A DNA stretch of 63,996 nt, counting the filler, from Candidatus Hydrogenedentota bacterium (lineage in GTDB: Bacteria > JBFMHD01), in assembly GCA_040752395.1 (NCBI GenBank). It is 13 parts of 13 records of this genome, joined end to end, with 100 filler letters (N's around TTAATTAATTAA, not from the genome) between each part and the next. Parts side by side here need not be neighbours in the genome. Positions count along the whole stretch, not along the records: positions 39,025 to 42,851 come from JBFMHD010000242.1; positions 42,952 to 46,750 come from JBFMHD010000243.1; positions 46,851 to 50,595 come from JBFMHD010000244.1; positions 50,696 to 54,367 come from JBFMHD010000245.1; 9 more parts are not named here. One strand, written 5' to 3'. Below the pieces are notes generated by a model. The model was not told the origin of the DNA, made no database searches, and saw only the letters and a program-made list of their open reading frames with translations. Below are positions 3,953-54,367 of this stretch, one piece after another. Each line of letters begins with the position of its first letter. Within the stretch, counting starts at the first letter, position 1. Made by a program: the position numbers and the translations under genes.

Positions 3953-4052
3953 NNNNNNNNNNNNNNNNNNNNNNNNNNNNNNNNNNNNNNNNNNNNTTAA
4001 TTAATTAANNNNNNNNNNNNNNNNNNNNNNNNNNNNNNNNNNNNNNNNNNNN
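3953..4052. other. Artificial contig linker. Same linker at 8005-8104, 12001-12100, 31019-31118, 34995-35094, 38925-39024, 42852-42951, 46751-46850, 50596-50695, 54368-54467, 58120-58219, 61849-61948
   Basis: Identical 100-nt N-run spacers with a central TTAATTAATTAA six-frame stop. Confidence 0.99.
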
Positions 4053-39024: not shown

Positions 39025-39197
39025 TTGCAAATCTCTGGCAGAGCCGAGTTACAAGCTTATACAATAATACTTTGTTTGACCCTATAGACAAAAATTATAC
39101 TGTTGGAACAATGAACTACTCGCAGAAATATGCGGATGCAGTATTTAATGAAGGTAGGGATGTAGCCTTAAATATTCTAATCAGATATATCAATTGA
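39025..39197 (+). CDS. C-terminal fragment of an unknown upstream gene
   Basis: Open frame from the contig edge: ANLWQSRVTSLYNN...ILIRYIN*. Confidence 0.4.
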
Positions 39198-39252: not shown

Positions 39253-41043
39253 ATGAGCATATTTATTACTAAAATATCACTATATTTAAAATTGATTAGC
39301 CGAATAATAAAATATAAGCAAAAATATATTTCAATTATAGTCATTTTTTTGATCGCTTTATTGGCAAGAATAGTATTCTTTATCTTTGAAAAAAATAGTC
39401 CTCTTTTTCTTTATCCTATTATTGATGAATTGGAATATTTGGAAAGAGCTCAATATTTAGCTAATAATAATTTTTCTTATCCAAAGGTTTACTGGCATCC
39501 ACCTTTATATCAATATTTTCTTGCTATATTAATGAAGATAGGATTAGAGAATAAATCAATTCTTATTATACAGAATATTATGGGTATTTTAGGCACGTTA
39601 ATACTCTATTTTTCACTAGAGAAAATAAATAAAAAAATTGGTTTTTATACATCTTTATTATGGAGCATATATCCTATTCAATTGTTTATTGAAAATAAAT
39701 TTTTAATGGAAAATATGTATATATTCCTACTTATATTATTTACCCATAACATTTTAAAAGAAAAACAAAACTATATGACCATATTATTTTCAGGGTTTCT
39801 ATCAAGTTTATTAATAATAACCAAACCTACTTTTATATTATTTATAATATTATACCTACTTTTTATGTTATTTAAGTTAAATTGTTATAATATAAAAAAG
39901 ATTATTATTTATATAAGTATTTCATTATTGTTACCTTTAATGGTTACTATTAAAAATTATTATACCTCAGGAGATAAAATAATTTTCGTTTCGAGTAATG
40001 GTGCAGTTAATTTATATATTGGAAATAGTAATAATATAAGAAAAACATTAAATATCAGGCCGAAAGACTGGTGGGATAACTTTTTCGTTCCTATATATAC
40101 ACAAGTTGGTTTAAAGGAACCAGAAGAACAGAATCCATATGAACTCGATGATTATTTTATTAAAAAAGTTATAAATGAAAATAAAAATTTAGAAACTTTT
40201 GCAAAAAATTTACTGATAAAATTTATTGTTTCATTTTTCAGTTATGAAACTCCCAGGAATTTTGATATTTATAGTTATCGAGAAGTTAATAATTATCTCA
40301 GATATTTAATATGGAAAAAGCCACTATATTTCCCACTGTCTCTTTTTATTTATTCGGCGTTTCTTTTTATGATTAAAAATAATTGGAGAAAGGATAATAT
40401 TAAAATTATATTCTTATTAACAATATCACATTGGTTACCATTAATAATATTTTTTAATGCTTTTAGATATAGATTAATTTGTGTACCTTATTTAATATTT
40501 TTAAGTATAAATTTTTATTATTTATATTGGAGAAATATGAACTGGCAGATTGTAAATATCATTTTAATTATTTTATTAGGTACAGGTATATTTAATAAAA
40601 TTCTTATTATACAATATATTTCCCCCGCGGAAACTTATAATTACTATGCCTTTGCATTATTTAAAAAAGGAGAATTAAATAGAGCTCTGAATTATTATAA
40701 TAGGGCTTTAAGGTATAATTTAGAAGAGGATGAAAGATATGCTATTTTGAATGATATGGCTAGTATATACTTTATTAAGAAAGATTATCATTCTGCAAAA
40801 AATAATTTAAATATATGTCTTAATACTAAAGATGAGCATTTAAAAAATAAAGTTTTATTCAATCTTGCTTTAATATATTTTAGGGAAAGTGAATATGTAA
40901 AAGCTTATCATTTGATATCAAAAATAGAAAAACCCGATAAAGAAGCTTTACAATTAAGAGGAGAATTAATTCAGAGAATTTTAACCTCAAGTAACTCTAC
41001 TGAACAACTTAAAAGTGATACCAACAGAAAGGGGGAAAATTAA
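39253..41043 (+). CDS. GT-C (ArnT/PMT-like) membrane glycosyltransferase with C-terminal TPRs
   Basis: PIIDELEY, HPPLYQYFLA, SSNGAVNLYIGN, FRYRL; many TMs; TPR tail. Confidence 0.8.
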   Translation: MSIFITKISLYLKLISRIIKYKQKYISIIVIFLIALLARIVFFIFEKNSPLFLYPIIDELEYLERAQYLANNNFSYPKVYWHPPLYQYFLAILMKIGLENKSILIIQNIMGILGTLILYFSLEKINKKIGFYTSLLWSIYPIQLFIENKFLMENMYIFLLILFTHNILKEKQNYMTILFSGFLSSLLIITKPTFILFIILYLLFMLFKLNCYNIKKIIIYISISLLLPLMVTIKNYYTSGDKIIFVSSNGAVNLYIGNSNNIRKTLNIRPKDWWDNFFVPIYTQVGLKEPEEQNPYELDDYFIKKVINENKNLETFAKNLLIKFIVSFFSYETPRNFDIYSYREVNNYLRYLIWKKPLYFPLSLFIYSAFLFMIKNNWRKDNIKIIFLLTISHWLPLIIFFNAFRYRLICVPYLIFLSINFYYLYWRNMNWQIVNIILIILLGTGIFNKILIIQYISPAETYNYYAFALFKKGELNRALNYYNRALRYNLEEDERYAILNDMASIYFIKKDYHSAKNNLNICLNTKDEHLKNKVLFNLALIYFRESEYVKAYHLISKIEKPDKEALQLRGELIQRILTSSNSTEQLKSDTNRKGEN

Positions 41044-41044
41044 A

Positions 41045-42851
41045 ATGAGAAGTAATATTTTTTATATTGTAATATGTATTATGATAATTTATTCGCAACC
41101 TTTAAATGCTCTAATGTGGTATATTAATGATACATCGACGTTAAATGGTGATATTTATACTACAGAAATTGGTAATGATTCAAATAGCGGATTAACCCCA
41201 TCTTCTCCAAAACGTTCTTTAGCCATTATATCAGGACTAATTAAGGCAGGAGATACAATATTTATTGATGCTGGTATTTTTTATGAAACATTAAATATAG
41301 AGACAGATTATCTAAACATAATCGGAGTGGACCCACAGAAAACAATCATTAATGCAAGTGATAGTAAAATAGAGTCTATATCCGGAATAAAGGCATATAG
41401 TACTAACAATATAATGATAAAAAATATAAAAGTTATAAATTCTTATTATGGTATAGATATAAGAAATCTTAGTACTCCTTACGAAGGAAGTCTAATTGAA
41501 AATTGTATCACTAATAATAATACTTTTGGCATTTTTATAAGTAATTCTGGTGGTATATCGCAGAATATTAGAATTGTTAACAATAGGTGTTACAATAATG
41601 CCTATTATGGTTTTTATTGTGAAGGAATCAATCATAGAATAATAAATAATGAGTTTTATAATAATAAGCGAGCGGGTCTTCGTTTAACAAATAGTAATAT
41701 ATGCATAGTTGAAAAAAATATTAGTTATGATAATGCTGGAAACGGACTTGAAATAATGAATACTTATGGTGGTTCACATATTGTAAGAGATAACATTTGC
41801 TATAATAATAGTGGTGACGGGATACTATATGAAGGCGTCACCAATGGAGTTTTGGAAAATAATGAAGTATATAATAATTCAAATAATGGTATTTTTATCT
41901 ATACTCGATACTACGGAAATGTAATAGGTAATCATATAAAAAATAATAAAGTCATAAATAATTTTAATGGTATTCGTATTGAAGGTACAGCTGGAAGAAA
42001 AGCTTTTAATAATATGATCTATAATAACACACTAATTTTAAATAGTAATTATGCTGTAATTATAGAGGGCACATCATATGATAATATTTTTACTAAAAAT
42101 AATATTATTATAGGAGAATCCGGAACTGGAATTTACAATAATAGTCCAAATTCTTTTAATTTTACCAGAAATTACTGGGGCACAACAAATGAAGATACAA
42201 TCTATAATATGATCCAGGGACCAGGAAGAGATTTAATAGTATGGAATCCTTACAGATTTAATTTTATTGATACTACTATTGGTGCAGATACTGTAGCGCC
42301 TGCATCACCTGATATAATCACAGTAGAGAATATTACCGAAGGAATATTGATAAGTTGGAATGAAGTTACAAAGAATGAGGAGCAAGGAGGTTATCCGTTC
42401 CAGTTGAATGGGTACAGGATATACCGTTCAACTGATCCCAATATACCAGATTGGCAACCGCCTTTAGGGGAAGTATCTTCAAGTGAGACACAATATATAG
42501 ATAATGATATTATGCAGGGGGAGACTTATTATTACAGAGTTACATCATTTGATACGTATATAACAGATGGAGTAGTATATGAGAATGAAAGCTGGTATTC
42601 TGATATAATATCAGTCTTTATTCAAGAATCGAGAGATACCTATGTTAAAGATGAGATGCTGGTTAAGTTTGATAAGCAATATCAATATATAGAGGTTATA
42701 GGCGAAACAGAGATAAGGATATCGGGTCCGAGCAAAGAAGATATAGAGAATTTTAATAATTTGCAAGGTTGTGAGGTGAAATACTATGACCCTGTGCTTA
42801 AGTTTTATCAGTTGAAAATACCTGCAAATAAAACAGTGGAAGAGATGATAC
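41045..42851 (+). CDS. Secreted beta-helix + FN3-like + S8 prodomain-like protein (3' truncated)
   Basis: Signal peptide; N..YNN..GI beta-helix repeats; GYRIYRS/YYYRVT; YVKDEMLVKF...FYQLKIP..KTVEEMI. Confidence 0.75.
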
Positions 42852-42964
42852 NNNNNNNNNNNNNNNNNNNNNNNNNNNNNNNNNNNNNNNNNNNNTTAAT
42901 TAATTAANNNNNNNNNNNNNNNNNNNNNNNNNNNNNNNNNNNNNNNNNNNNACTATCAAAAACT

Positions 42965-43699
42965 CTACACATGAGATTGAAAATCTTTATCTATCTCTTT
43001 GACCACTGTATATTTTTTTCTTAAACTCCTATAAAAAGCGATACCAATCCCGGCTAACGCATATAAATTGCATATAACAAACATAGTCTGATAAAACCAT
43101 TTTATGAGAATTATAATGAATAAAAAAGAGACCCAGATTAATCGCGTAGGGGTCCGTCGCCTGAAATCGTATTTTTTAAATGTTGGATAAGGTAGAGTAC
43201 TTATCATTAAATAAGATATAAGTAGTAAAGTAGCAATAAAAATAATAGACGGCAATTTAAGTTTAATAGTATAATCAATCATAACAAGCGATACAACTAC
43301 ACCGCTTGCAGCCGGGATGGGTAACCCTATAAAATAATCCTCTGGTTTTTCAGAGGACTTTATTTTAAATCTTGCAAGTCTCAGACCACCACTAACAAGA
43401 TAAATCATACAAAAGAGCCAGCCCACTGCAGTATCATATAGATAAATAAGTAAAGCAGGTGCGATACCAAAAGATATAATATCAGCTAATGAGTCGAACT
43501 CAATGCCAAACCTGCTGGATGTGCCTGTTAATCGTGCTATCCTGCCATCAAGCGCATCACATATAGCAGCAACAAGCACAAAGATACCTGCTTCGTCATA
43601 CCTTTTATGTAGGGCAAGAATAATAGAGTAAAAACCACAAATCATATTACCGATAGTAAGGAAACTCGGCAATACATAAGCACCTTTTTTTAAACGCAT
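42965..43699 (-). CDS. pssA: Phosphatidylserine synthase
   Basis: DALDGRIARL..SRFGIEFDSLAD, LRLARF, FIGLPIPAA. Confidence 0.93.
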   Translation of the reverse strand: MRLKKGAYVLPSFLTIGNMICGFYSIILALHKRYDEAGIFVLVAAICDALDGRIARLTGTSSRFGIEFDSLADIISFGIAPALLIYLYDTAVGWLFCMIYLVSGGLRLARFKIKSSEKPEDYFIGLPIPAASGVVVSLVMIDYTIKLKLPSIIFIATLLLISYLMISTLPYPTFKKYDFRRRTPTRLIWVSFLFIIILIKWFYQTMFVICNLYALAGIGIAFYRSLRKKYTVVKEIDKDFQSHV

Positions 43700-43719
43700 A
43701 AAACTCCGCCCTTACCCCA

Positions 43720-44340
43720 CTATTCACCAAGAATGGTTTTACCGGCAAAGACTTTATCGCCCACTGATACAAAGGTCTTTAAATTTCTATCAATATATAA
43801 TTCTACACGTGAACCAAACTGAACTATACCAATCCTTTCACCACGCCGAACAAAATTATGCTCTTTAACATAGCTTACAATCTGTCTTGCTATAATTCCT
43901 GCTATCTGTCTTAAAACCATTTTTTTCCCGTCCTCAAGCTCAATAAAATAAGTCCTGCTTTTATTAAGTTCGCTTGCCCTTCGGTCGTTAGCAGGGTATA
44001 ACTTTTCGCCTCGATTAGTAATTTTTATGATCCTTCCTGATAACGGCATCCGATTAACGTGTACATCATAAATCCGCATAAAAATACTTATTTTTTTGCA
44101 GGTCTCAGCAAAAAAATCGCCGTCAAATACATCTTCAACCTCTAAAATTATACCGTCTGCAGGCGATACTACACCTTTTTCTCTATCAGGTATCCTTTGT
44201 AGATCCCTGTAAAAGTATATAAGAAATAATGCAATTAAAAATAAGAAAGAAGCTATTATTTTCAGAGAGGAAAGCGCAAAAAGTAGTGCTGCAACTAATA
44301 AGATAAATATTTTTGCTATCCCTTCTTTAGCAATCCCCAT
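43720..44340 (-). CDS. psd: Phosphatidylserine decarboxylase proenzyme
   Basis: VSPADG, ISIFM...DVHVNRMP, QIAG.IAR, FGSRVE. Confidence 0.92.
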   Translation of the reverse strand: MGIAKEGIAKIFILLVAALLFALSSLKIIASFLFLIALFLIYFYRDLQRIPDREKGVVSPADGIILEVEDVFDGDFFAETCKKISIFMRIYDVHVNRMPLSGRIIKITNRGEKLYPANDRRASELNKSRTYFIELEDGKKMVLRQIAGIIARQIVSYVKEHNFVRRGERIGIVQFGSRVELYIDRNLKTFVSVGDKVFAGKTILGE

Positions 44341-44345
44341 AAAAA

Positions 44346-44834
44346 TTATCCAGATTTCTGCACTTTTCCGAGAGCCACCACACCTGTTCGTGCTATCTCT
44401 TTAATCCCAAAACCCTTCATTGTATTAATAAACGAATCTATCCTCTCAGTATCTCCAGTAACTTCTATCAGAAAAGTTTTATCATTTAAATCAATAACTT
44501 TAGCATCAAAAATACGTATATAATCCAATAATTCAACTCTCTTCACAGGCTCAGAGACTGAAACTTTAACAAGTAATAACTCGCGACAGGCAGCAGGCGA
44601 GTCCTTAAAATCTATGACTTTTATAACATCTATCAGCTTATTTAATTGTTTACAGACCTGCTCAAGTATCCTGTCATCACCCGAGACAACAATGGTCATT
44701 CTTGAGACAGTAGGGTCATCAGTCTCACCAACTGTTAAACTATCGATGTTAAATCCTCTACCTGAAAAAAGGCCAGAAATTTTAGCAAGTACACCAAAAT
44801 GGTTCTCAACTAAAACTGATATCGTATGTTTCAT
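44346..44834 (-). CDS. ilvN: Acetolactate synthase small subunit
   Basis: HTISVLVEN..GVL....LFSGRGFNIDSL, EIARTG. Confidence 0.95.
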   Translation of the reverse strand: MKHTISVLVENHFGVLAKISGLFSGRGFNIDSLTVGETDDPTVSRMTIVVSGDDRILEQVCKQLNKLIDVIKVIDFKDSPAACRELLLVKVSVSEPVKRVELLDYIRIFDAKVIDLNDKTFLIEVTGDTERIDSFINTMKGFGIKEIARTGVVALGKVQKSG

Positions 44835-46516
44835 GCGAGATCACTCCTGTCTATCATTTTACTTATCGGCATACCAGCTGGCACCATAGGTAAAACATTC
44901 TCTTCTCTTCTAACTTTAAAATCAATAAAAACCGGTTTATCTTTTATTGTTAATGCTTTTTTAATTACCTCTTCAACCTCTTTATTTTTTGTAGCTCTTA
45001 AACCAACAGCACCATAGGCTTCAGCAAGTTTTACAAAATCCGGTGCTTTTGATAAATCGACACCACAGTATCTTTTATTGTAAAAAAGTTGCTGCCACTG
45101 ACGAACCATCCCAAGATATTGATTATCAAGTATAGCAACAATTACATTGACTTTTTCACTAACCGCGGTCATTAACTCTTGAATGTTCATTTGAATACTT
45201 CCATCACCTGCTATGTCAAAAACTATTTCATCTGGTCTTGCGACTTTAACACCGATCGCTGCAGGAAAACCATAACCCATAGTCCCTAATCCACCTGATG
45301 AAAAAAAGCTTCGTGGTTTTTTGGCTTTATAAAATTGTGCTGCCCACATCTGGTTCTGACCTACCTCGGTTGTTATAAGTGCTTCACCATCTGTTAACTT
45401 ATGAATCGTCTCTATAACAAACTGCGGTGGTATCCCCAAAGTATCGTCCCTGTCATAGACTATCGGAAATTTTTCTTTCCATTCCAGAACATCCCTTAAC
45501 CACTCTTTTCTACTTTTTTTCGCAATAAGTGGTAGTAACTCCTCTAATATCTGTTTTACATCACCTACTATCGGGATATGGACCTCAATTATTTTTGAGA
45601 CACTTGATGGGTCTATATCAAGATGAATGATAGTTGCATTTAAGGCGAACTCGTCGGTCTTACCAGTAACTCTGTCATCAAACCTTACACCTGCTGCTAT
45701 GATAACATCAGCATTGGATATAGAAAGATTAGCAGCTTTGGTGCCGTGCATCCCGAGCATACCAACACATAGTTGATGCTCATCCGGGAACCCACCTTTA
45801 CACATCAGTGTATAACCAACCGGAATATCCGATTTCTCAGCTAATTGTAAAATAAGTTTAGCTGCCTCGGAGATTATCACACCGCCACCTATATACAAAA
45901 ACGGTCGTTTGGCTCCATTAATTATCTCAGCAGCTTTTTTAATCTGTTTGGGATGACCTTTATAGGTTGGTTTGTAACCGCGTAACTCGACTTTTTCAGG
46001 ATAAACAAATTTAGACTTTGCACGTGCGATATCAACAGGTAAATCAATTAGAACAGGTCCGGGTCTACCAGTAGAAGCTATAAAAAATGCTTCTTTAACA
46101 ATCCTCGGTAAATCTTTAACGTCTTCCACAAGATAATTATGTTTTGTTATAGGTCTTGTTATACCTGTAATATCAGCTTCCTGAAATGCGTCATTACCAA
46201 TGAGATGCGTTGCCACCTGACCAGTTATCGCAACTATCGGTACTGAATCCATATATGCTGTAGCTATGCCTGTAACAAGATTAGTTGCACCCGGGCCTGA
46301 TGTAGCGATACATACCCCAACTTTTCCGCTCGAACGAGCATAACCATCAGCCATATGCGCAGCACCCTGTTCATGACGCGTCAATATAAATCTGATATCA
46401 GAGTCATATAAAGCATCAAAGACAGGAAGTAACACTCCACCCGGATACCCGAACAAAACTTCGACATTCTCTCGCTTCAAACATTCAATAAGTATCTTAG
46501 CCCCTGTAATTTCCAC
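44831..46516 (-). CDS. ilvB: Acetolactate synthase large subunit (start likely GTG 46516)
   Basis: FGYPGG, RHEQGAAHMADGYAR, TSGPGATN, GDGSIQMN. Confidence 0.96.
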   Translation of the reverse strand: MEITGAKILIECLKRENVEVLFGYPGGVLLPVFDALYDSDIRFILTRHEQGAAHMADGYARSSGKVGVCIATSGPGATNLVTGIATAYMDSVPIVAITGQVATHLIGNDAFQEADITGITRPITKHNYLVEDVKDLPRIVKEAFFIASTGRPGPVLIDLPVDIARAKSKFVYPEKVELRGYKPTYKGHPKQIKKAAEIINGAKRPFLYIGGGVIISEAAKLILQLAEKSDIPVGYTLMCKGGFPDEHQLCVGMLGMHGTKAANLSISNADVIIAAGVRFDDRVTGKTDEFALNATIIHLDIDPSSVSKIIEVHIPIVGDVKQILEELLPLIAKKSRKEWLRDVLEWKEKFPIVYDRDDTLGIPPQFVIETIHKLTDGEALITTEVGQNQMWAAQFYKAKKPRSFFSSGGLGTMGYGFPAAIGVKVARPDEIVFDIAGDGSIQMNIQELMTAVSEKVNVIVAILDNQYLGMVRQWQQLFYNKRYCGVDLSKAPDFVKLAEAYGAVGLRATKNKEVEEVIKKALTIKDKPVFIDFKVRREENVLPMVPAGMPISKMIDRSDLA

Positions 46517-46750
46517 GTTCGCTCCTCTGAAAAACATTCTAACTCTAATAATATCAAGTAGAAGCAAGAAGCAAGATAAACAAACATCTGGTTTTTCATA
46601 CGTTGTGTAGAGCGCAAACCGCGCTCAGGACTACTCCTTTAAAAGCCAGAAGCAAGAAACTCATCCGGCTTAATCAGTTGTCAGTTTCGAGTCTTTAGTC
46701 ATCAGTCTTTCTTGACTCACGACTTATTGACTGATTTTCTGACTTACAAG
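46517..46750 (-). repeat. Mosaic element (A, partial C, F-G) carrying the ilvB RBS
   Basis: AGGAG-tagtc-ctgagcgcggtttgcgctctacac...cttgatattattagagttagaatgtttttcaGAGGAG. Confidence 0.85.
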
Positions 46751-46850
46751 NNNNNNNNNNNNNNNNNNNNNNNNNNNNNNNNNNNNNNNNNNNNTTAATT
46801 AATTAANNNNNNNNNNNNNNNNNNNNNNNNNNNNNNNNNNNNNNNNNNNN

Positions 46851-47062
46851 ATTGGGTTATTGGGTTATTGCGTTATTGCGTTCTACACAAAGTATGAAAA
46901 ACTAAAGATGATATGAAAAGAGTCGTGAGTCAAAACAGGACTCGAGACTCAAGACTTTTCAGCAGGCTCCGGGCTTTTGGCTCCAGCCGGCTGTAGTCCG
47001 TAGCCTGTAGCCTGTCCTGATACCTCTCACTTCTTACTTCTTACTTCTTCAGAGGAGGGGTT
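46851..47062 (+). repeat. Mosaic element (B-C-D-E-F, cagaGGAG end)
   Basis: Near-identical to 4890-5065 and 50380-50550. Confidence 0.9.
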
Positions 47063-47386
47063 ATGAAAAAATACGTAAAGATAGATACTCCTGAGAATTT
47101 TGATATGACGTATATATTTGATTTAAAAAGCAAAATGTCGAATTTCCCTTATGAACAGAAATATTCTATAATTTTTGATTTTAAAAAAACTAAATTTCTT
47201 TCAAGTTTAGGGGTTGGAGTACTATTGTATCTTAATGCAAGAACAAAAAAGAATAATGGCGAGATGAGACTCATTAATGTTAATGAAACAATAATGAACA
47301 CCTTTCATTTACTTGGTGCTGACCAGGAAGTGACTATATCAGAATCAGAAGAAATACCAGCTGGATGGGAAGAAGTGATTTTTTGA
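47063..47386 (+). CDS. STAS-domain (anti-anti-sigma-like) protein
   Basis: IIFDFKKTKFLSSLGVGVLL. Confidence 0.8.
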   Translation: MKKYVKIDTPENFDMTYIFDLKSKMSNFPYEQKYSIIFDFKKTKFLSSLGVGVLLYLNARTKKNNGEMRLINVNETIMNTFHLLGADQEVTISESEEIPAGWEEVIF

Positions 47387-49269
47387 TGGTTTTTTATAAA
47401 AAGAAGTCTTTATTTTTTAGTAGCTTTCTAATTATCCTCTCTTTTATATCAATACTTTTAGGTATTAATAATTTCAGGGTAATAGGCATTGCAGGTTCTT
47501 GCTACTATAATGAACTGAAAAATTATGAGAAAAGCATAGTAGATTTATTGATGAATGTAAATAAGGATATGGTTTTCCGTACTTTAGCAAGAAGTAGTAT
47601 AAAAATAAAGGGGCACTATAAAACAAAGATTTTTATAGGTCAGCTCTCTGAAATATTAATAGAGAATGTTAATGAAGACTATGTGCAGTTAAAACTTATT
47701 GATGGGATACTGGCTATAGAATGCGTTAAATCGAGTACCCCATTTTATATAACCTCTGAAAATAGAAAAATAGAGATATGCGGAACCACAAATAAAGTTA
47801 TGATAAAAAAAGAAAAGCGATTTATTAATAAGAAGATGGATGTCGTTACACTTGGGTATATTATTGAGGGAGAAGTAAAAGTCGATGAAAGAGTAATGGA
47901 AGGTCAATATAAATTTGAAATATCAGATAACAGAATTGAAATTAATGAATTATATTTATCTGATTTTAAATATATTAAAAATGATTTTTGTAATTTACTG
48001 GATGATGATTTTATATCTTATGAGAGATTTATTACTTCGGAGATAGAAGTTAAAGAGATAAAAGAGAAGAAGAAACCAGGCGAAGAATTGATAATGAAGG
48101 ATGAGATACCGCCTATTCTTGTAATAACAAGAGTAGTACCTGAGATTGATGGAATTATTACTTTATATGGTTATACAGAGCCAAATGTAACAGTTGAGGT
48201 CGATGGTTACCCAATAGATGTTTTACCGGATGGCTCTTTTAGACAGCGGCTTGATTTTATAAAGCCTCAACGTATCCCTGAAATAATAGCCCGTGACCTC
48301 GCAGGTAATGAAAACCGATATGTTTTGACTGATATAGGTGATTATTATAGCCTACCGCAGGATTTTGAAGTTACTGCAAACCCGAGTGTGGTTGATGCAA
48401 AAGGACCAGGTTCACAAATAGTTAATGTGCGAGCAAGATTTATAACAAGCTCGGGCAAGACACCGTCACCAACCTTTGTCCGTTTTGAAGCTGTTTCAGC
48501 TACTGGTAAAAAGATGGGTGAGATTTTAGGCAGCAATGTTGTGTTTACAGATTTTAATGGTGAAGCGAATATCCAGTTCAGGCCCGGCTATTTCCCTGGT
48601 CAAGCCTTTATGAGGGTTTATAATCATACAAACGGTGAAGAACTCGGCTCAACAAGTATAACTCTAAGAGACGCAGTACCTGATAGAGTTCCTGGTTCTA
48701 TTATTGAGGTACAAAATTCTATATTCGGTAACAATACTTTGCTTTTAACATGGAGTGGTGGGAATATCGAGGAAGATTTGTTCGGTTACAGGGTTTATAA
48801 AAACAGCTGTCTTGTAGCTACGTATCCCATTGGTACCACATCATATTATGAAGATAATCTTATAGAAGATGAGGTCGTAACCTATGAGATTCGAGCTATA
48901 GATATAGCTGATCCGTTGATACTTGAAAGTGAATCTTTGAGTAAGACAATAACTATAAAGGACAATTCCGCACCTATAGTTCTTGGGGCAGGGGGCGTGA
49001 CAGGAGCAACAAGATATATAGATGTAACTTTTTCAGAGGATTTGTCTTATAATGGGAATTATACGTTATTGACAGTTTTCCCTGGTGATGTACCTTTACC
49101 AAAAGTTATGTCAAATCAATTTATAGGTAATGGTACGGTAAGATTGGGGCTTGATGCGGATCTGGTTCTTTATCACAGTTATGAGTTAGAGATAAGTGAT
49201 GCAAAGGACGATGGCTCTATTCAGAACACAATGCAGCCCAATCCAACCCGGGTTGTGATAAATTATTGA
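47386..49269 (+). CDS. Exported protein with degenerate FecR-like, Ig-like and FN3-like domains
   Basis: N-terminal TM; DEIPPIL..G.TEP...V.VDG...DGSF...ARDLAGN; GYRVYKN, YEIRAID. Confidence 0.6.
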   Translation: MVFYKKKSLFFSSFLIILSFISILLGINNFRVIGIAGSCYYNELKNYEKSIVDLLMNVNKDMVFRTLARSSIKIKGHYKTKIFIGQLSEILIENVNEDYVQLKLIDGILAIECVKSSTPFYITSENRKIEICGTTNKVMIKKEKRFINKKMDVVTLGYIIEGEVKVDERVMEGQYKFEISDNRIEINELYLSDFKYIKNDFCNLLDDDFISYERFITSEIEVKEIKEKKKPGEELIMKDEIPPILVITRVVPEIDGIITLYGYTEPNVTVEVDGYPIDVLPDGSFRQRLDFIKPQRIPEIIARDLAGNENRYVLTDIGDYYSLPQDFEVTANPSVVDAKGPGSQIVNVRARFITSSGKTPSPTFVRFEAVSATGKKMGEILGSNVVFTDFNGEANIQFRPGYFPGQAFMRVYNHTNGEELGSTSITLRDAVPDRVPGSIIEVQNSIFGNNTLLLTWSGGNIEEDLFGYRVYKNSCLVATYPIGTTSYYEDNLIEDEVVTYEIRAIDIADPLILESESLSKTITIKDNSAPIVLGAGGVTGATRYIDVTFSEDLSYNGNYTLLTVFPGDVPLPKVMSNQFIGNGTVRLGLDADLVLYHSYELEISDAKDDGSIQNTMQPNPTRVVINY

Positions 49270-49585
49270 TTGCTATATAAAATAAGAGGCACAAAGTAGT
49301 GATGGTCTTTAGAACCGTGGTAGGCAAATAAATTTGCAATTTTGCAATTTGCAATCTCCAATTTACAATTCGAAATTCAAAAGAATTTCGAACATCTTGG
49401 TTCTTGCTTCTTGTTTCGAGAACTTTTGACCTTTTAACTTTTTATGGACAGTAAGCAGTCAGATATCAATAATATTGATAAATAACTTTAAAAACTAAAG
49501 GTCCGACCCTATTGTAGAAAAAAAGATACTTGATTTTTTTATATAAGTAGTTAATATATTAAAAATTATATGACGGGGTTTTTAT

Positions 49586-49819
49586 ATGACGACTATTGAA
49601 ATAATAAACCAACTAAGAAGACTCAATTCTGATGAGCTAATAAATATTATTGAAAATGCAGTTGCGGTGCTTGAATCAAAGATTCAATCATCAAATAAGA
49701 CAAAAAATAGGTCAAAAAAACAATTATTCAAAGCTGCAAAAAAATTGGTTTCAGAATATAAAAACAATAGTGAACTGACAGCATTTACTTTGATTGATGG
49801 TGACGAATTTTATGCGTAG
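49586..49819 (+). CDS. Putative antitoxin of the MazF-family toxin
   Basis: AAKKLVSEYKNNSELTAFT..DG.EF; overlaps the toxin start. Confidence 0.65.
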   Translation: MTTIEIINQLRRLNSDELINIIENAVAVLESKIQSSNKTKNRSKKQLFKAAKKLVSEYKNNSELTAFTLIDGDEFYA

Positions 49820-50153
49820 GGGTGAAGTATGGATGGTCAATTTAAATCCTACGATTGGTGCTGAAATAAAGAAAACCCGGCCGGCAGTGATTGTAAACGA
49901 TGATGCGGTTGGGATACTTCCACTTAAAATTATTGTACCTATTACAGAATGGAAATCTTCGTTCAAGGATGTGCCATGGATGGTGCGAATAGAACCATCA
50001 ATAACAAATGGTTTACGTAAAGTTTCGATCGCCGATGCGTTTCAGGTAAGATCAATATCACAGTTAAGACTTATTAATAAAATTGGTGTTTTATCAGCGA
50101 GTACTATGAACCTAATTACCAAAGCACTTGCTCTTGTCTTAGGTATGGAATAA
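49812..50153 (+). CDS. PemK/MazF-family toxin
   Basis: RGEVWMVNLNPTIGAEIKKTRPAVIV, NGL.K.S.AD.FQVRSIS..RL. Confidence 0.9.
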   Translation: MRRGEVWMVNLNPTIGAEIKKTRPAVIVNDDAVGILPLKIIVPITEWKSSFKDVPWMVRIEPSITNGLRKVSIADAFQVRSISQLRLINKIGVLSASTMNLITKALALVLGME

Positions 50154-50179
50154 AAGTGTATTGGTTAATTTTTTCATTA

Positions 50180-50595
50180 TCTTTCCTTTCCGTTATCCTG
50201 CTTCTAAATAAGGGCAAATGAATTTGTATTCCATTAGTCTTCAGTAGGATTCCGTAATCTTGCCTCTTGCTTCTAAAGTATAAGTTCTACTGCACCAATA
50301 ACTGAGGCTTTACATGAATTTGCAATTTGCACTTTACAATTTGCAATTTATAATTTAAAATAGACCGAAGTGACAGAGAGGCACAAAGGATGAAAAACTA
50401 AAGATGATATGAAAAGAGTCGTGAGTCAAAACAGGACTCGAGACTCAAGACTCAAGACTTTTCAGCAGGCTTTTGGGCTTTTGGCTCCAGCCGGCTGTAG
50501 GCCGTAACCTGTAGCCCGTAGCCCGTCCTGATACCTCTCACTTCTTCCGTTATCTTGCTTCTTGCCTCTTGTTTCTACTTGATATTATTATAGTT
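50180..50595 (+). repeat. Long mosaic element (F and TTGCAAT arrays, C-D-E-F-G), cut by the contig end
   Basis: 50380-50595 matches 4925-5065 and 14055-14240. Confidence 0.9.
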
Positions 50596-50695
50596 NNNNN
50601 NNNNNNNNNNNNNNNNNNNNNNNNNNNNNNNNNNNNNNNTTAATTAATTAANNNNNNNNNNNNNNNNNNNNNNNNNNNNNNNNNNNNNNNNNNNN

Positions 50696-52154
50696 GTATC
50701 ATCTCTTCCACTGTTTTATTTGCAGGTATTTTCAACTGATAAAACTTAAGCACAGGGTCATAGTATTTCACCTCACAACCTTGCAAATTATTAAAATTCT
50801 CTATATCTTCTTTGCTCGGACCGATTAGTATATATTGTGTCTCACCATGAATTTCAATCGATTGTTCTTTAAATTTAACCAAGATTTCATCTTTTACATA
50901 CATTTTTTCGGTTTCAGAAACACCCTCAACTGCACCAATATCAACTGGTTTAGACCGAAGATTACCATAGAAATCAGTCATTGGAGTAGAATATGTATCG
51001 TATCCAGCATCAATACATGGGGACCCTGCTTGTGGTTCGTATGTTAGTAAAGATATTTGTGGGTCCTGTCCCATGATCTCATTTCTTATGTCAATATATG
51101 AGGCATCTAATACTGTAGACGGTTCTGAAGAAGGTAAATAATAAAACAAATTATTATACATTAACAAAGTGGCACAGTAGGTAATCTCATATAACAGAAC
51201 CTCGGGGAAGTTGAGTTCAGCTTCAGTGTTATACATAATGATATTATTGATAAATTCCACTTCGACCGCATATCCTATAGTGGAAAAACAATTGATTAAT
51301 GTGTTATTATATGCTTTGCAAATATATGTATGTTCATCAACATACGCATTCCCACCAAAATTTATGCGGGTATATCCTGAATTCTCATCAGTTGTAGTCT
51401 TAAAAATATTATTCTCAAAATAACTGTAAAGTACATAATCACAACCTATGCCGCCTTGACTTGCAGTAGCGTCCACCTCGAAATAGCAATTTCTCATGAT
51501 AAAAGTATCAGTTCGACAACATAGAGAAAAGTTCCCCATATCTAATATTATGGGATCTATTGTCCTTAAGCCCTCCATTATAATTGTACTGACATAATCG
51601 CCATAACTATCTTGCGTAAATATTACTACATCCCACCCTGTTTTATTATGAATCCCAGAAAAGTTTATATTTCTTAATGTCAGATTATCAAATAAATTGG
51701 CAGGCATGTAGAAAATTGCACTGCTACCTCGAGGCCCTCTCCATGCATTCGCATAATAATTCCTGATAGTAAAATCCTGCAAAATTAAACCATCTGCATT
51801 AATGAAAAATAGAGATATATCCATCTCAGAAACAGTTGTTCCATCGATAACTGCTTTGTCGCCAGGTCTAGACATTATAGTTAAATTAGGAACATTAATA
51901 TTTATGGTATTATCTGGTATTAATGTTATTTCTTCCCCTCTGTTATTCGCCATAATGTATATGGTATCAGCTGGTGAGGCAGATGCGATGGCATTAGCTA
52001 AATCAGAGAAAGCCGTTGCCCAGTTCTCTGTAAATCCATCGGAATTATCGCCGTTCGGATTCACGTAAATAATATTGGCATTTATTTGCGGAATATGAAT
52101 TACATAAATTGTAGCAAATACAAGTAATAATGATAAACGTTTAAAGTATAGCAT
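50696..52154 (-). CDS. Secreted beta-helix protein with choice-of-anchor-Q-like motif and S8 prodomain-like segment (3' truncated)
   Basis: Signal peptide; IYVN..G...DG...WATAF; SPCIDAG...DFYGNLR..PVDIGAVE; last 127 nt identical to 42725-42851. Confidence 0.75.
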
Positions 52155-52176
52155 TTAATATTTCTCCTCCTCTTGT

Positions 52177-54015
52177 TTATTTAATCGAACCTGAATAATT
52201 TTTATGCTTATATCCATATAAAATTTCATTAATGGCACTTCTCATAAATGTCTTAAATAAAGGTGATTTTGTATCCACGAATGAGTATTGAGATAATTTA
52301 TCTATAAAAATATTAATATCATTGTTTAAAATATTTATTAGAGATTGCAAAGGAATACTTTTGTCATAATTATGTAACTTAATTAAATTAACAGATATAT
52401 TGATATCTAATTTACCAGCTGGCCGAGCTTCTTTAAAATAATACTCAGCCATAACCTTTCCTTTATTAATTAGATTCGAGATAATTTCTTTGCTTTGGTT
52501 TTGCGGCAATATTTCGATAGCATAGGCATAAAAATCCAGACTATAGTATTCATGACGTTCATTTATTTTGTATTTGTTAATATCATCAGGTGGTATATAA
52601 AAAAGAGAAACAAATAATAAAGAAAATATGAGCATCGTCCTTATAGGTAAATGATTGTTCACAGATGAAGGTTTACTTCCTGCGACTGATATTATACTCA
52701 ACATCCTCCCTATAGATTGGTAGATAAGTAATGATATAGTATTAATTATCTCCTTTAAAAAACCTATAAAGCCTATGCACCAAAATGGTATCAAATAAAT
52801 CCTATATCGTGAACAGGGAAAGGCATATAGAGTAATAGCAATAACCATAAGAATGGTAATAACATAAATATTCCTAATATTTTTTTCTTTACTAAAAAAA
52901 AGATAAGGTATTCCTAATAAATAAAAGACTCCCGGGAAAATAAAATATTTTGATATATATACGGTTTTGAAATGAATTTTATCCTGCAATTCGTAAATCG
53001 GAAAACTTCTAAATAATTCAAGCGGAGATAAAAGCTGCCTTATCTTGTAAATTAATTCCTTAAACCAGATTTCAGGATAATGTCTTATAAAATATAAGGC
53101 TATCTTATAAGAATAAACTGGTTTATAAAATAGATAATTCTTTTCTTTGATTCCATAATAATTTATCCCAACATAATAAAGGTAATCGGCCTGCAACTGA
53201 GAACTATCTTTAATTGAGACGTTATATCTTTTGAAATTATAATTGCCGCTATTAGCTATCCAAAAATTAATTGGTCCATTATAAGACATAAATATACTTC
53301 TGTAATTGACAACGGAAAATAAGATAATAGCAAATAGCGGAATAGATGATACAAGTATTCTTTTAACATTTTTTATAGACAGACCTCTGTAAAGAATTGT
53401 CAGCCAATATATTCCAATAAATAATATAAACCATGCACGGATAATATAACATAATGCTAATATTATGCCGCAAATAAAATCAATTTTGGCCGACCCTTCT
53501 TTAATTTTTAAAAGATAAATAAACAGTAACAATAAAAATAAGGTTGGTAATTCCGGCAATAACAATAATGTTTCATGTATAATAATCGGGGAAAGAGCAA
53601 ATAAAACCGTTGCAAAACATGCGAATACTTTCGATTTCAATATATCGACGCTGATTCTATAAACAAGCAAACAAGAGCTTAAATATAGCAACAGGTAAAT
53701 ATATCCTGTAAAAGTATGCACATTGTCTATATTAAAACATTTAAATTTCAACAAAAAATAATAGTAAAATATCAGTCCCGGCGGTTCGCAAAAACCGCCT
53801 TTTTCCTTTGCTTGCTTAAATAGATCTGGATTATTCGCCCATGATACATACTCACCACTATCGGGAATCTCTCTTCTTAAATATTCTGGAATATTATGGT
53901 GATAACTTATAAAACAATACAGAATTACAGATAAACAAAATATTTCAGTTAAAATAAAAATATAGTCAATATTTTTGGTAAAGCATCGTGCACTTTCGAT
54001 AATTTTTTTTTGCAA
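52177..54015 (-). CDS. GT-C (ArnT/PMT-like) membrane glycosyltransferase
   Basis: PDSGEY, EPPG..YY, LLPEL, SYNGPINFWIAN, SRYRI; many TMs. Confidence 0.7.
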   Translation of the reverse strand: MQKKIIESARCFTKNIDYIFILTEIFCLSVILYCFISYHHNIPEYLRREIPDSGEYVSWANNPDLFKQAKEKGGFCEPPGLIFYYYFLLKFKCFNIDNVHTFTGYIYLLLYLSSCLLVYRISVDILKSKVFACFATVLFALSPIIIHETLLLLPELPTLFLLLLFIYLLKIKEGSAKIDFICGIILALCYIIRAWFILFIGIYWLTILYRGLSIKNVKRILVSSIPLFAIILFSVVNYRSIFMSYNGPINFWIANSGNYNFKRYNVSIKDSSQLQADYLYYVGINYYGIKEKNYLFYKPVYSYKIALYFIRHYPEIWFKELIYKIRQLLSPLELFRSFPIYELQDKIHFKTVYISKYFIFPGVFYLLGIPYLFFSKEKNIRNIYVITILMVIAITLYAFPCSRYRIYLIPFWCIGFIGFLKEIINTISLLIYQSIGRMLSIISVAGSKPSSVNNHLPIRTMLIFSLLFVSLFYIPPDDINKYKINERHEYYSLDFYAYAIEILPQNQSKEIISNLINKGKVMAEYYFKEARPAGKLDINISVNLIKLHNYDKSIPLQSLINILNNDINIFIDKLSQYSFVDTKSPLFKTFMRSAINEILYGYKHKNYSGSIK

Positions 54016-54224
54016 CGCTCGTCATCCTCTCCTCTCAAATTATTTAGTCGACTCGCATGTGATGAATCTTTTCCCATCATTTGTAATAAGTACCCATATC
54101 CGAGCATTGTTCACCATAAACTCACTTATGATTCTATAATCTTTGAGCGTGTGGTATAAGTTAACAAACAGGCTCATATTTTAAAATAACATTATTTCAA
54201 ACAACAAATTTTGTCAAATTTTTA

Positions 54225-54367
54225 TTAGACGCTTGTACCATGACCATTACCGTCTTCTGGTATATTATCATTTCCCACGAAATCCCAGCCGTTTATATCA
54301 TCTATATATCCATTCCCATCGTTATCTATACCTTCTATTATTTCGCCGATGTTTACCCACAGGTTAT
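54225..54367 (-). pseudogene. S8 subtilisin catalytic-domain fragment ending just after the catalytic His
   Basis: Manual translation NLWVNIGEIIEGIDNDGNGYIDDINGWDFVGNDNIPEDGNGHGTSV then TAA TAA. Confidence 0.8.

Follow-up and report, generated by a model that had tools for sequence, protein, structure and literature searches.

The DNA analysed here (the window; 63,996 bases) comes from a Candidatus Hydrogenedentota bacterium (JBFMHD01, assembly GCA_040752395.1), and two of its contigs carry a two-gene cassette in which a gene for a probable GT-C glycosyltransferase of the PMT_2 type is followed by a gene for a secreted protein that joins a beta-helix to the prodomain of an S8 protease (subtilase). 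Cassette A lies on contig C160 and cassette B on contig C163, and the open reading frames of both contigs confirm the common layout that a preliminary description of this DNA had pointed out. The same gene pair occurs again on C149, a contig of 4096 nt outside the window (cassette C), and the arrangement is therefore not an isolated coincidence. All three cassettes consist of a GT-C gene, probably of the PMT_2 type throughout, and then a gene for a secreted protein with a beta-helix and a prodomain.

The window is made of 13 contigs of one metagenome-assembled genome (G000) and is not one continuous stretch of that genome. The assembly comprises 349 contigs and 2.84 Mb, with 93.8% completeness and an estimated contamination of 0.45%, and the shortest contig in the bin has 1508 nt. 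In the window, the contigs are separated by N44-ttaattaattaa-N44 spacers and their order approximately follows their length, so that adjacency and relative orientation carry no information. The same holds for the apparent convergence of the two cassette contigs, which had been taken as a property of the locus and is an artefact of concatenation; C161 and C162, placed between C160 and C163, are unrelated DNA. Apparent open reading frame ends at 42907 and 50640 were likewise rejected as artefacts of stop codons within the spacer. The G+C contents of the three cassette contigs C160, C163 and C149 (0.263, 0.310 and 0.320) are below that of the genome (0.348). The features of cassettes A and B are listed in Table 1.

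Table 1. Contigs, genes and repeated stretches of cassettes A and B, with positions counted along the whole window
Feature	Position	Strand	Description
Contig C160	39025-42851		Carries cassette A
First 127 nt of C160	39025-39151	+	Equal to the reverse complement of the last 127 nt of C110; k=127 graph overlap
Truncated fragment of a giant surface protein	39027-39197	+	56 codons; 'ANLWQSR...NEG' common with C110, then 'RDVALNILIRYIN' and a stop; upstream of cassette A
GTC_A	39253-41043	+	Polytopic membrane protein of 596 aa; PMT_2 (residues 82-229), then TPR repeats in the C-terminal part (from residue 459)
BH_A	41045-42851	+	ATG at 41045; open at contig end; beta-helix, FN3-like module, first part of S8 prodomain
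127-nt stretch, end of C160	42725-42851	+	Prodomain residues 'GPSKEDIENF...TVEEMI'; entry to collapsed constant segment
Contig C163	50696-54367		Carries cassette B
127-nt stretch, end of C163	50696-50822	-	Equal to the cassette A stretch
BH_B	50696-52154	-	Open at contig end; Pel9A/DUF1565-type right-handed beta-helix at residues 25-410, choice-of-anchor Q at 370-410, prodomain at 414-486
GTC_B	52177-54015	-	612-aa polytopic membrane protein; divergent GTC_A homologue
S8 catalytic-domain stub	54222-54367	-	'NLWVNIGEIIEGIDNDGNGYIDDINGWDFVGNDNIPEDGNGHGTSV'; TAA TAA at 54222-54227; cut just past the catalytic His motif

The first genes of the cassettes encode divergent membrane proteins. GTC_A matches PF13231 (E 5.1e-10; 40.2 bits, above the cut-off of 26.1) and TPR_2 (E 1.6e-5). 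GTC_B has no Pfam or NCBIfam match at E up to 0.1, and aligns with GTC_A by BLASTP (E 1e-8, 27% over 255 aa); the glycosyltransferase of C149 is 29-30% identical to GTC_A. The genome holds five GT-C paralogues, four of which match PMT_2 and TPR, and an Asp at position 58 of GTC_A is invariant in the GT-C alignment. Among the best 60 of 93 matches, a profile built from the five paralogues recovered only TPR proteins from solved structures. The glycosyltransferase gene and the gene of the secreted protein are separated by 1 nt on C160 and by 22 nt on C163.

The proteins encoded by the second genes differ in their N-terminal parts. Both BH_A and BH_B begin with a signal-peptide-like sequence, judged by eye, as was the FN3-like module of BH_A. 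In BH_A the right-handed beta-helix is identified by PF13229 (E 1.6e-33), with a further match to NosD (7.3e-13), and the corresponding protein of C149 is 42-46% identical to it over about 400 aa. In BH_B it is identified by the predicted structure, which resembles Pel9A-like, DUF1565 and Beta_helix clusters with TM values by query of 0.70-0.76 in nine of the ten rows and 0.63 in the remaining one; the choice-of-anchor Q domain matches NF041518 (E 1.9e-8). The variable part would comprise 400-530 aa and come in two unrelated kinds: A and C have NosD/Beta_helix with an FN3-like module, whereas the helix of B is of the Pel9A/DUF1565 type.

The change from variable to common sequence falls at 'YVKDE.LVKF', as had been described. 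BH_A and BH_B are unrelated before this point and 75% identical over 77 aa from there on, and the proposal that this common segment is an S8 prodomain is borne out by the profile search. PF22148 (Fervidolysin N-terminal prodomain; gathering cut-off 21 bits) matches the C149 protein at full length (E 5e-12, 46.5 bits, profile positions 12-81 of 81) and BH_B with 27.3 bits (E 4.9e-6), which places a fervidolysin-type prodomain in both. In BH_A the match covers residues 537-612 and reaches 18.0 bits alone (E 0.0039) and 25.1 bits with neighbours in frame. The junction between beta-helix and prodomain exists in three nucleotide versions, each 100-225 nt inside unique contig sequence and each with a continuous frame, which argues that the fusion is not an assembly chimera.

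The C149 contig extends furthest into the common part. After the prodomain there is one in-frame TAG (3969-3971), and the frame then reads 'TTPDDPIQGWNLDQIDAYNGWDITTGDNDVVIGIIDSGMDL', a subtilase linker and Asp box, until the contig ends (the frame after the TAG is 'TTPDDP...VVIGIIDSGMDL'). The Asp box 'VVIGIIDSG' is seen in C149, only after the in-frame TAG; the contigs of A and B end before that point. Alignments with ordinary proteins of the pro-S8 type run collinearly through the TAG and cover 121-136 aa at 35-40% identity. Recoding of TAG was rejected as an explanation, as TAG ends 249 of the 1413 long open reading frames and read-through adds little to their length. The continuation of the C149 frame into the Asp box shows that the common segment was correctly assigned to S8. 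In thermitase/fervidolysin-type subtilases a signal peptide, PF22148, PF00082 and variable C-terminal domains follow one another, and the last ~130 residues of C149 align with these enzymes at 33-40% identity across the prodomain, its 'YAEPNY' end, the 'TPDDP' linker and the Asp box. The repeat underlying the contig ends is the S8 prodomain with the N-terminal part of the catalytic domain. As judged from their sequences, the beta-helix proteins would be N-terminally extended subtilase precursors or remnants of such precursors.

The two cassette contigs of the window share their last bases exactly: the two 127-nt stretches of Table 1 are reverse complements of each other (127/127), both stop at N spacers, and beyond them the identity between A and B drops to 17/30, 15/30 and 9/30 in successive ungapped windows of 30 nt. 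The figure of 127 is a property of the assembler. In 22 groups of contig ends of this assembly the terminal 127-mer is common to the group, further 127-nt links from contig end to contig start are present, and in 15 of the 22 same-exit groups the ungapped identity in the 150 nt adjoining the overlap is 0.19-0.39. Sharing of 127-nt ends is therefore widespread, as a k=127 graph would produce. According to the account of contig ends given with COBRA, metaSPAdes and MEGAHIT leave end overlaps of maximum k at repeats or strain variants, and a metaSPAdes setting in common use goes up to k = 127 (PMC10914622). The overlaps seen here do not differ from those of the COBRA type, which fully explain the value of exactly 127 nt. 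The identity is thus a k-mer overlap into a collapsed repeat, as had been suspected, and it marks a real repeated gene segment; the true identical stretch has at least 127 nt, and its full length is not readable from the contigs.

A practical lesson follows, and it is more certain than the biological reading. Identities of k-mer length at contig ends, and apparent orientation in a concatenated genome of this kind, are products of assembly, and they are useful as pointers to a repeat but do not describe the repeat as such.

The remaining piece of the protease lies on C163. A stub of an S8 catalytic domain precedes GTC_B by about 210 nt, with unrelated intervening sequence, and ends in 'GHGTSV' followed by two stop codons. 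Its 46 residues are 52-78% identical to the 120 matches listed for it, all of which carry a precomputed PF00082 annotation, whereas its identity to the S8 genes elsewhere in the genome is only 39-48%. PF00082 is found in three genes of the bin (on C60, C28 and C247), which are complete and separate from the cassettes, and those on C28 and C247 have prodomains of their own. When aligned with four full-length relatives, the stub starts seven columns after the C149 tail ends, which indicates that the two are consecutive parts of one S8 N-terminal region, about 21 nt apart.

The ends of the contigs constrain what lies between these parts. The last 127-mer of C149 starts at 3970, one base after the T of the TAG. 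When a contig merges with another path in a k=127 graph, its end lies 127 nt past the last base at which the two differ, and the T would accordingly be found in C149 alone. This suggests that the path joined by C149 has a sense codon (AAG, CAG or GAG) in place of the TAG, and from the contig geometry the stop between prodomain and catalytic domain would be peculiar to cassette C. At the upstream end of C163, the first 127 nt stop inside the His codon, and the S8 consensus is left a few codons later. Taken together, the contig ends are consistent with a collapsed constant segment some 465 nt long that would cover the second half of the prodomain and what follows up to the His motif. From the same geometry, this segment would consist of two edges, of about 317 and 275 nt, each shorter than the 1508-nt minimum of the bin; contigs would consequently stop there with a 127-nt overlap. 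C160, C163 and C149 would all enter the segment. In such a graph, a tandem repeat shows as a contig that leaves the collapsed segment and enters it again. C163 would do so, which suggests that at least two of the cassettes are in tandem. The cassette immediately upstream of B would then be A or C, with the protease stub only.

The pattern of identity around the common part is a mosaic. Between A and B, 127/127 identical positions lie beside 28/60 just upstream, and between C and A/B, 44/72 is followed by 55/55. A perfect run of 55 nt beside 61% identity is not expected from uniform divergence and is most simply read as gene conversion, or as recent recombination, across the constant part. Comparison of the three contigs by blastn for a recombination site or promoter gave no conserved sequence at the cassette boundaries outside the prodomain region. 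A scan for sigma-70 promoters was uninformative (25 and 40 sites, with shuffle means of 24.3 and 32.0). A 43-nt pattern from the common segment had no exact match in a metagenome contig collection, which may exclude the records of this genome.

Our results indicate, with moderate confidence, that the genome contains at least three paralogous two-gene cassettes with a collapsed, recombining S8 constant part, and that at least two of them are in tandem. The first gene would encode a GT-C membrane glycosyltransferase of the PMT_2 type, and the second, directly downstream, a Sec-exported protein whose C-terminal part is a fervidolysin-type prodomain that probably runs on into an S8 catalytic domain. 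The constant part would be identical or nearly so between copies, so that a k=127 assembler collapses it, and one copy would persist as the stub directly upstream of B. PMT_2-type GT-C enzymes move sugars from lipid-linked donors on the membrane's outer side. As three divergent GT-C genes are each closely paired with a gene for a divergent secreted protein, each enzyme may modify its neighbour, and the glycosylation would presumably take place in the periplasm. Subtilase prodomains are removed by autocatalytic cleavage; in a protein with an intact S8 domain, such processing at the junction of the prodomain would part the protease from its beta-helix passenger.

The third copy and the protease stub lend partial support to a tandem, recombining arrangement of cassettes, and the interpretation put forward in the preliminary description is partly supported as a whole. 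A tandem array had been proposed there; the stub upstream of GTC_B is what such an array predicts, but cassettes A and C have other sequences upstream. That N-termini are swapped onto "one protease body" is still a conjecture.

Several observations weigh against the arrangement of tandem, recombining cassettes. Only cassette B has an S8 stub upstream, while cassette A follows the truncated surface-protein fragment and cassette C the end of a different gene, so that the array is not uniform. No complete PF00082 domain (His, Asn and Ser) belonging to the cassette genes is present in this 94%-complete bin, although the rest of these genes may lie on unbinned contigs, and among the proteins listed for the stub there is no intact S8 body for the cassettes (best match 78% identical). 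The S8 parts that are seen are the stub and a copy interrupted by a TAG, and all copies could be decaying remnants. The existence, length, coverage and exits of the collapsed nodes are deduced from the contig ends and are not in the data, and either contig end could be a coverage dead end instead of a branch. G000 is the sole genome of its phylum in a collection of 199,900 species, and all 40 "relatives" share the domain level only, so that the gene pairing is judged from this one genome. The glycosyltransferases are linked to their presumed substrates by adjacency; in G039, an unrelated genome with the same beta-helix module, the one match to GT-C is on C4, a contig without any listed beta-helix match.

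An alternative that we regard as unlikely is that co-existing strains differ at one or two hypervariable loci for surface proteins and that the contigs represent the different versions, their shared ends being conserved flanks with no tandem array in any single genome. The many branch points of the assembly, represented by the 22 same-exit groups, have arms that are mostly unrelated right at the branch, as strain variation would give. At its left end C160 diverges from C110, where the giant-protein gene is intact, a pattern that an insertion polymorphism would give, and the low G+C of the cassette contigs (0.26-0.32, compared with 0.35 for the genome) is typical of variable islands. However, the upstream flanks of A, B and C all differ, so that the cassettes are not alleles of one locus with common flanks. 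The contamination estimate of 0.45% is also against co-existing strains, and the stub upstream of B still needs a second copy of the constant part on the molecule that carries B.

It is improbable that the cassettes are dispersed full-length paralogues, that is, three complete genes for beta-helix, prodomain and S8 domain whose recently duplicated S8 parts were collapsed and left unbinned, with the stub as an unrelated decayed pseudogene. The C149 frame does run from prodomain to Asp box, repeats of higher coverage are often lost on binning, and the genome has other S8 genes with prodomains of their own, on C28 and C247. Under this explanation, however, the offset of seven residues between the stub and the C149 tail would be a coincidence, as would the start of C163 127 nt before the departure from the S8 consensus, and the low identity of the stub to the other S8 genes of the genome argues in the same direction. 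An assembly chimera, with a prodomain tail wrongly joined to unrelated beta-helix genes, is scarcely credible, since the short contigs that end in a repeat would invite such an error but the three versions of the junction lie well inside unique sequence with their frames continuous.

If the cassettes are tandem and recombining, they may be ordered as a replacement array of reversed polarity. New N-terminal beta-helix modules, each with its own GT-C enzyme, would be recombined through the ~465-nt segment onto a single functional subtilase, and older modules would be pushed upstream and retain a protease stub only, as in cassette C with its TAG and in the copy cut after the His motif. We consider this model speculative and rather unlikely to be correct as it stands. 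Recombination between constant segments could switch the glycosylated passenger that is carried and released by the protease. In a bolder variant, truncated products that end at the prodomain would dock in trans on the surface protease through binding between prodomain and protease.

Orphan-cassette arrays of the Rhs and CDI polymorphic toxin loci offer a comparison. The cassettes resemble them in the association of a variable module with a companion gene, in what may be a short, highly similar piece of constant region kept on a displaced copy (the stub) and in the block-wise identity, which suggests recombination. They differ in polarity, the variable part being N-terminal, and in the companion gene, which encodes a glycosyltransferase; no full-length "main" gene is seen. 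Scans of GTC_A, BH_A, GTC_B and BH_B against Pfam and NCBIfam gave no toxin or immunity family, and the loci are not classed as polymorphic toxins. A tandem, recombining arrangement, if true, would be a cassette system that varies an N-terminal passenger together with a dedicated glycosyltransferase, and not a C-terminal toxin tip, in a host lineage without another genome in the collection searched.

A subtilase is also genetically tied to secreted polymorphic proteins in the S8-PTS (PMC13556192). In the outline of that system published in 2026 for Gram-positive bacteria, a separate peptidase cleaves a BetaH-toxin fusion and an immunity gene follows (PMC13556192). The S8-PTS was rejected as a model for the cassettes, where neither a separate peptidase nor a BetaH-toxin fusion nor an immunity gene of the kind outlined there (PMC13556192) is seen.

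The position of the prodomain sets the cassette proteins apart from most of the subtilases compared. In all 24 relatives that were scanned with Pfam, the S8 domain starts at residue 144-257 (in one at 350), and the prodomain, where detected, lies within the first ~150 residues; in contrast, the cassette proteins have 410-530 residues of beta-helix before it. The placement of a prodomain after 400-550 aa of beta-helix had been called atypical. It is rare but not unknown, as a database subtilase of 1009 aa (P0277) has about 380 aa before a fervidolysin-type prodomain, and an extension of this kind is thus not unique. Beta_helix was found in none of the 13 longer relatives. Pontiella-type S8 peptidases (P0310, P0269 and P0289) combine, like the cassettes, a subtilase and a right-handed beta-helix (PF13229/NosD) in one polypeptide, but in the reverse order, with S8 at 234-491 and the beta-helix C-terminal at about 1300-1550. 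A subtilase with a large folded module before its prodomain would raise the question of whether autoprocessing serves as passenger release.

The combination of beta-helix and prodomain was not found outside G000 in a phmmer search of the C149 protein against 1.8 billion representatives (best 150 of 574 matches at E up to 0.001). Among the matches listed, and as judged by best stretches only, these stretches end at query residue ~450-486 (one at 516), except in the query itself and in P0003 and P0004 of G000. In the same listed matches the beta-helix/FN3 module recurs in giant repeat proteins that have no prodomain. The BH_A-type beta-helix with its FN3-like module occurs 49 times in G039, with 31-45% identity to BH_A and often in tandem inside open frames of 2,000-9,114 aa, and G013 likewise carries the module many times in giant proteins.

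Surface-protein genes of G000 appear to recombine widely. Two giant genes outside the window, on C110 and C51, run off their contigs on one side or both (1712 and 1968 aa could be read) and meet in a common C-terminal part, where the ungapped identity rises through 47%, 73% and 85% to 127/127. A truncated copy of the N-terminal part of one of these two genes sits upstream of cassette A. The C-terminal regions of the C28 and C247 proteases match the tails of the relatives P0005 and P0011, and many other contigs match those tails as well; the tails may be type IX secretion C-terminal domains for export.

The two contigs that lie between the cassettes in the window carry other genes. On C161, a housekeeping run of genes for phospholipid and branched-chain amino acid metabolism (42965-46567, minus strand) encodes a CDP-alcohol phosphatidyltransferase, a phosphatidylserine decarboxylase and the small and large subunits of acetolactate synthase. 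C162 has a PemK/MazF-type toxin gene (49794-50153, plus strand; E 4.7e-25), upstream of which lie an open reading frame of 634 aa without a Pfam match (47365-49269) and one with a STAS domain (47063-47386).

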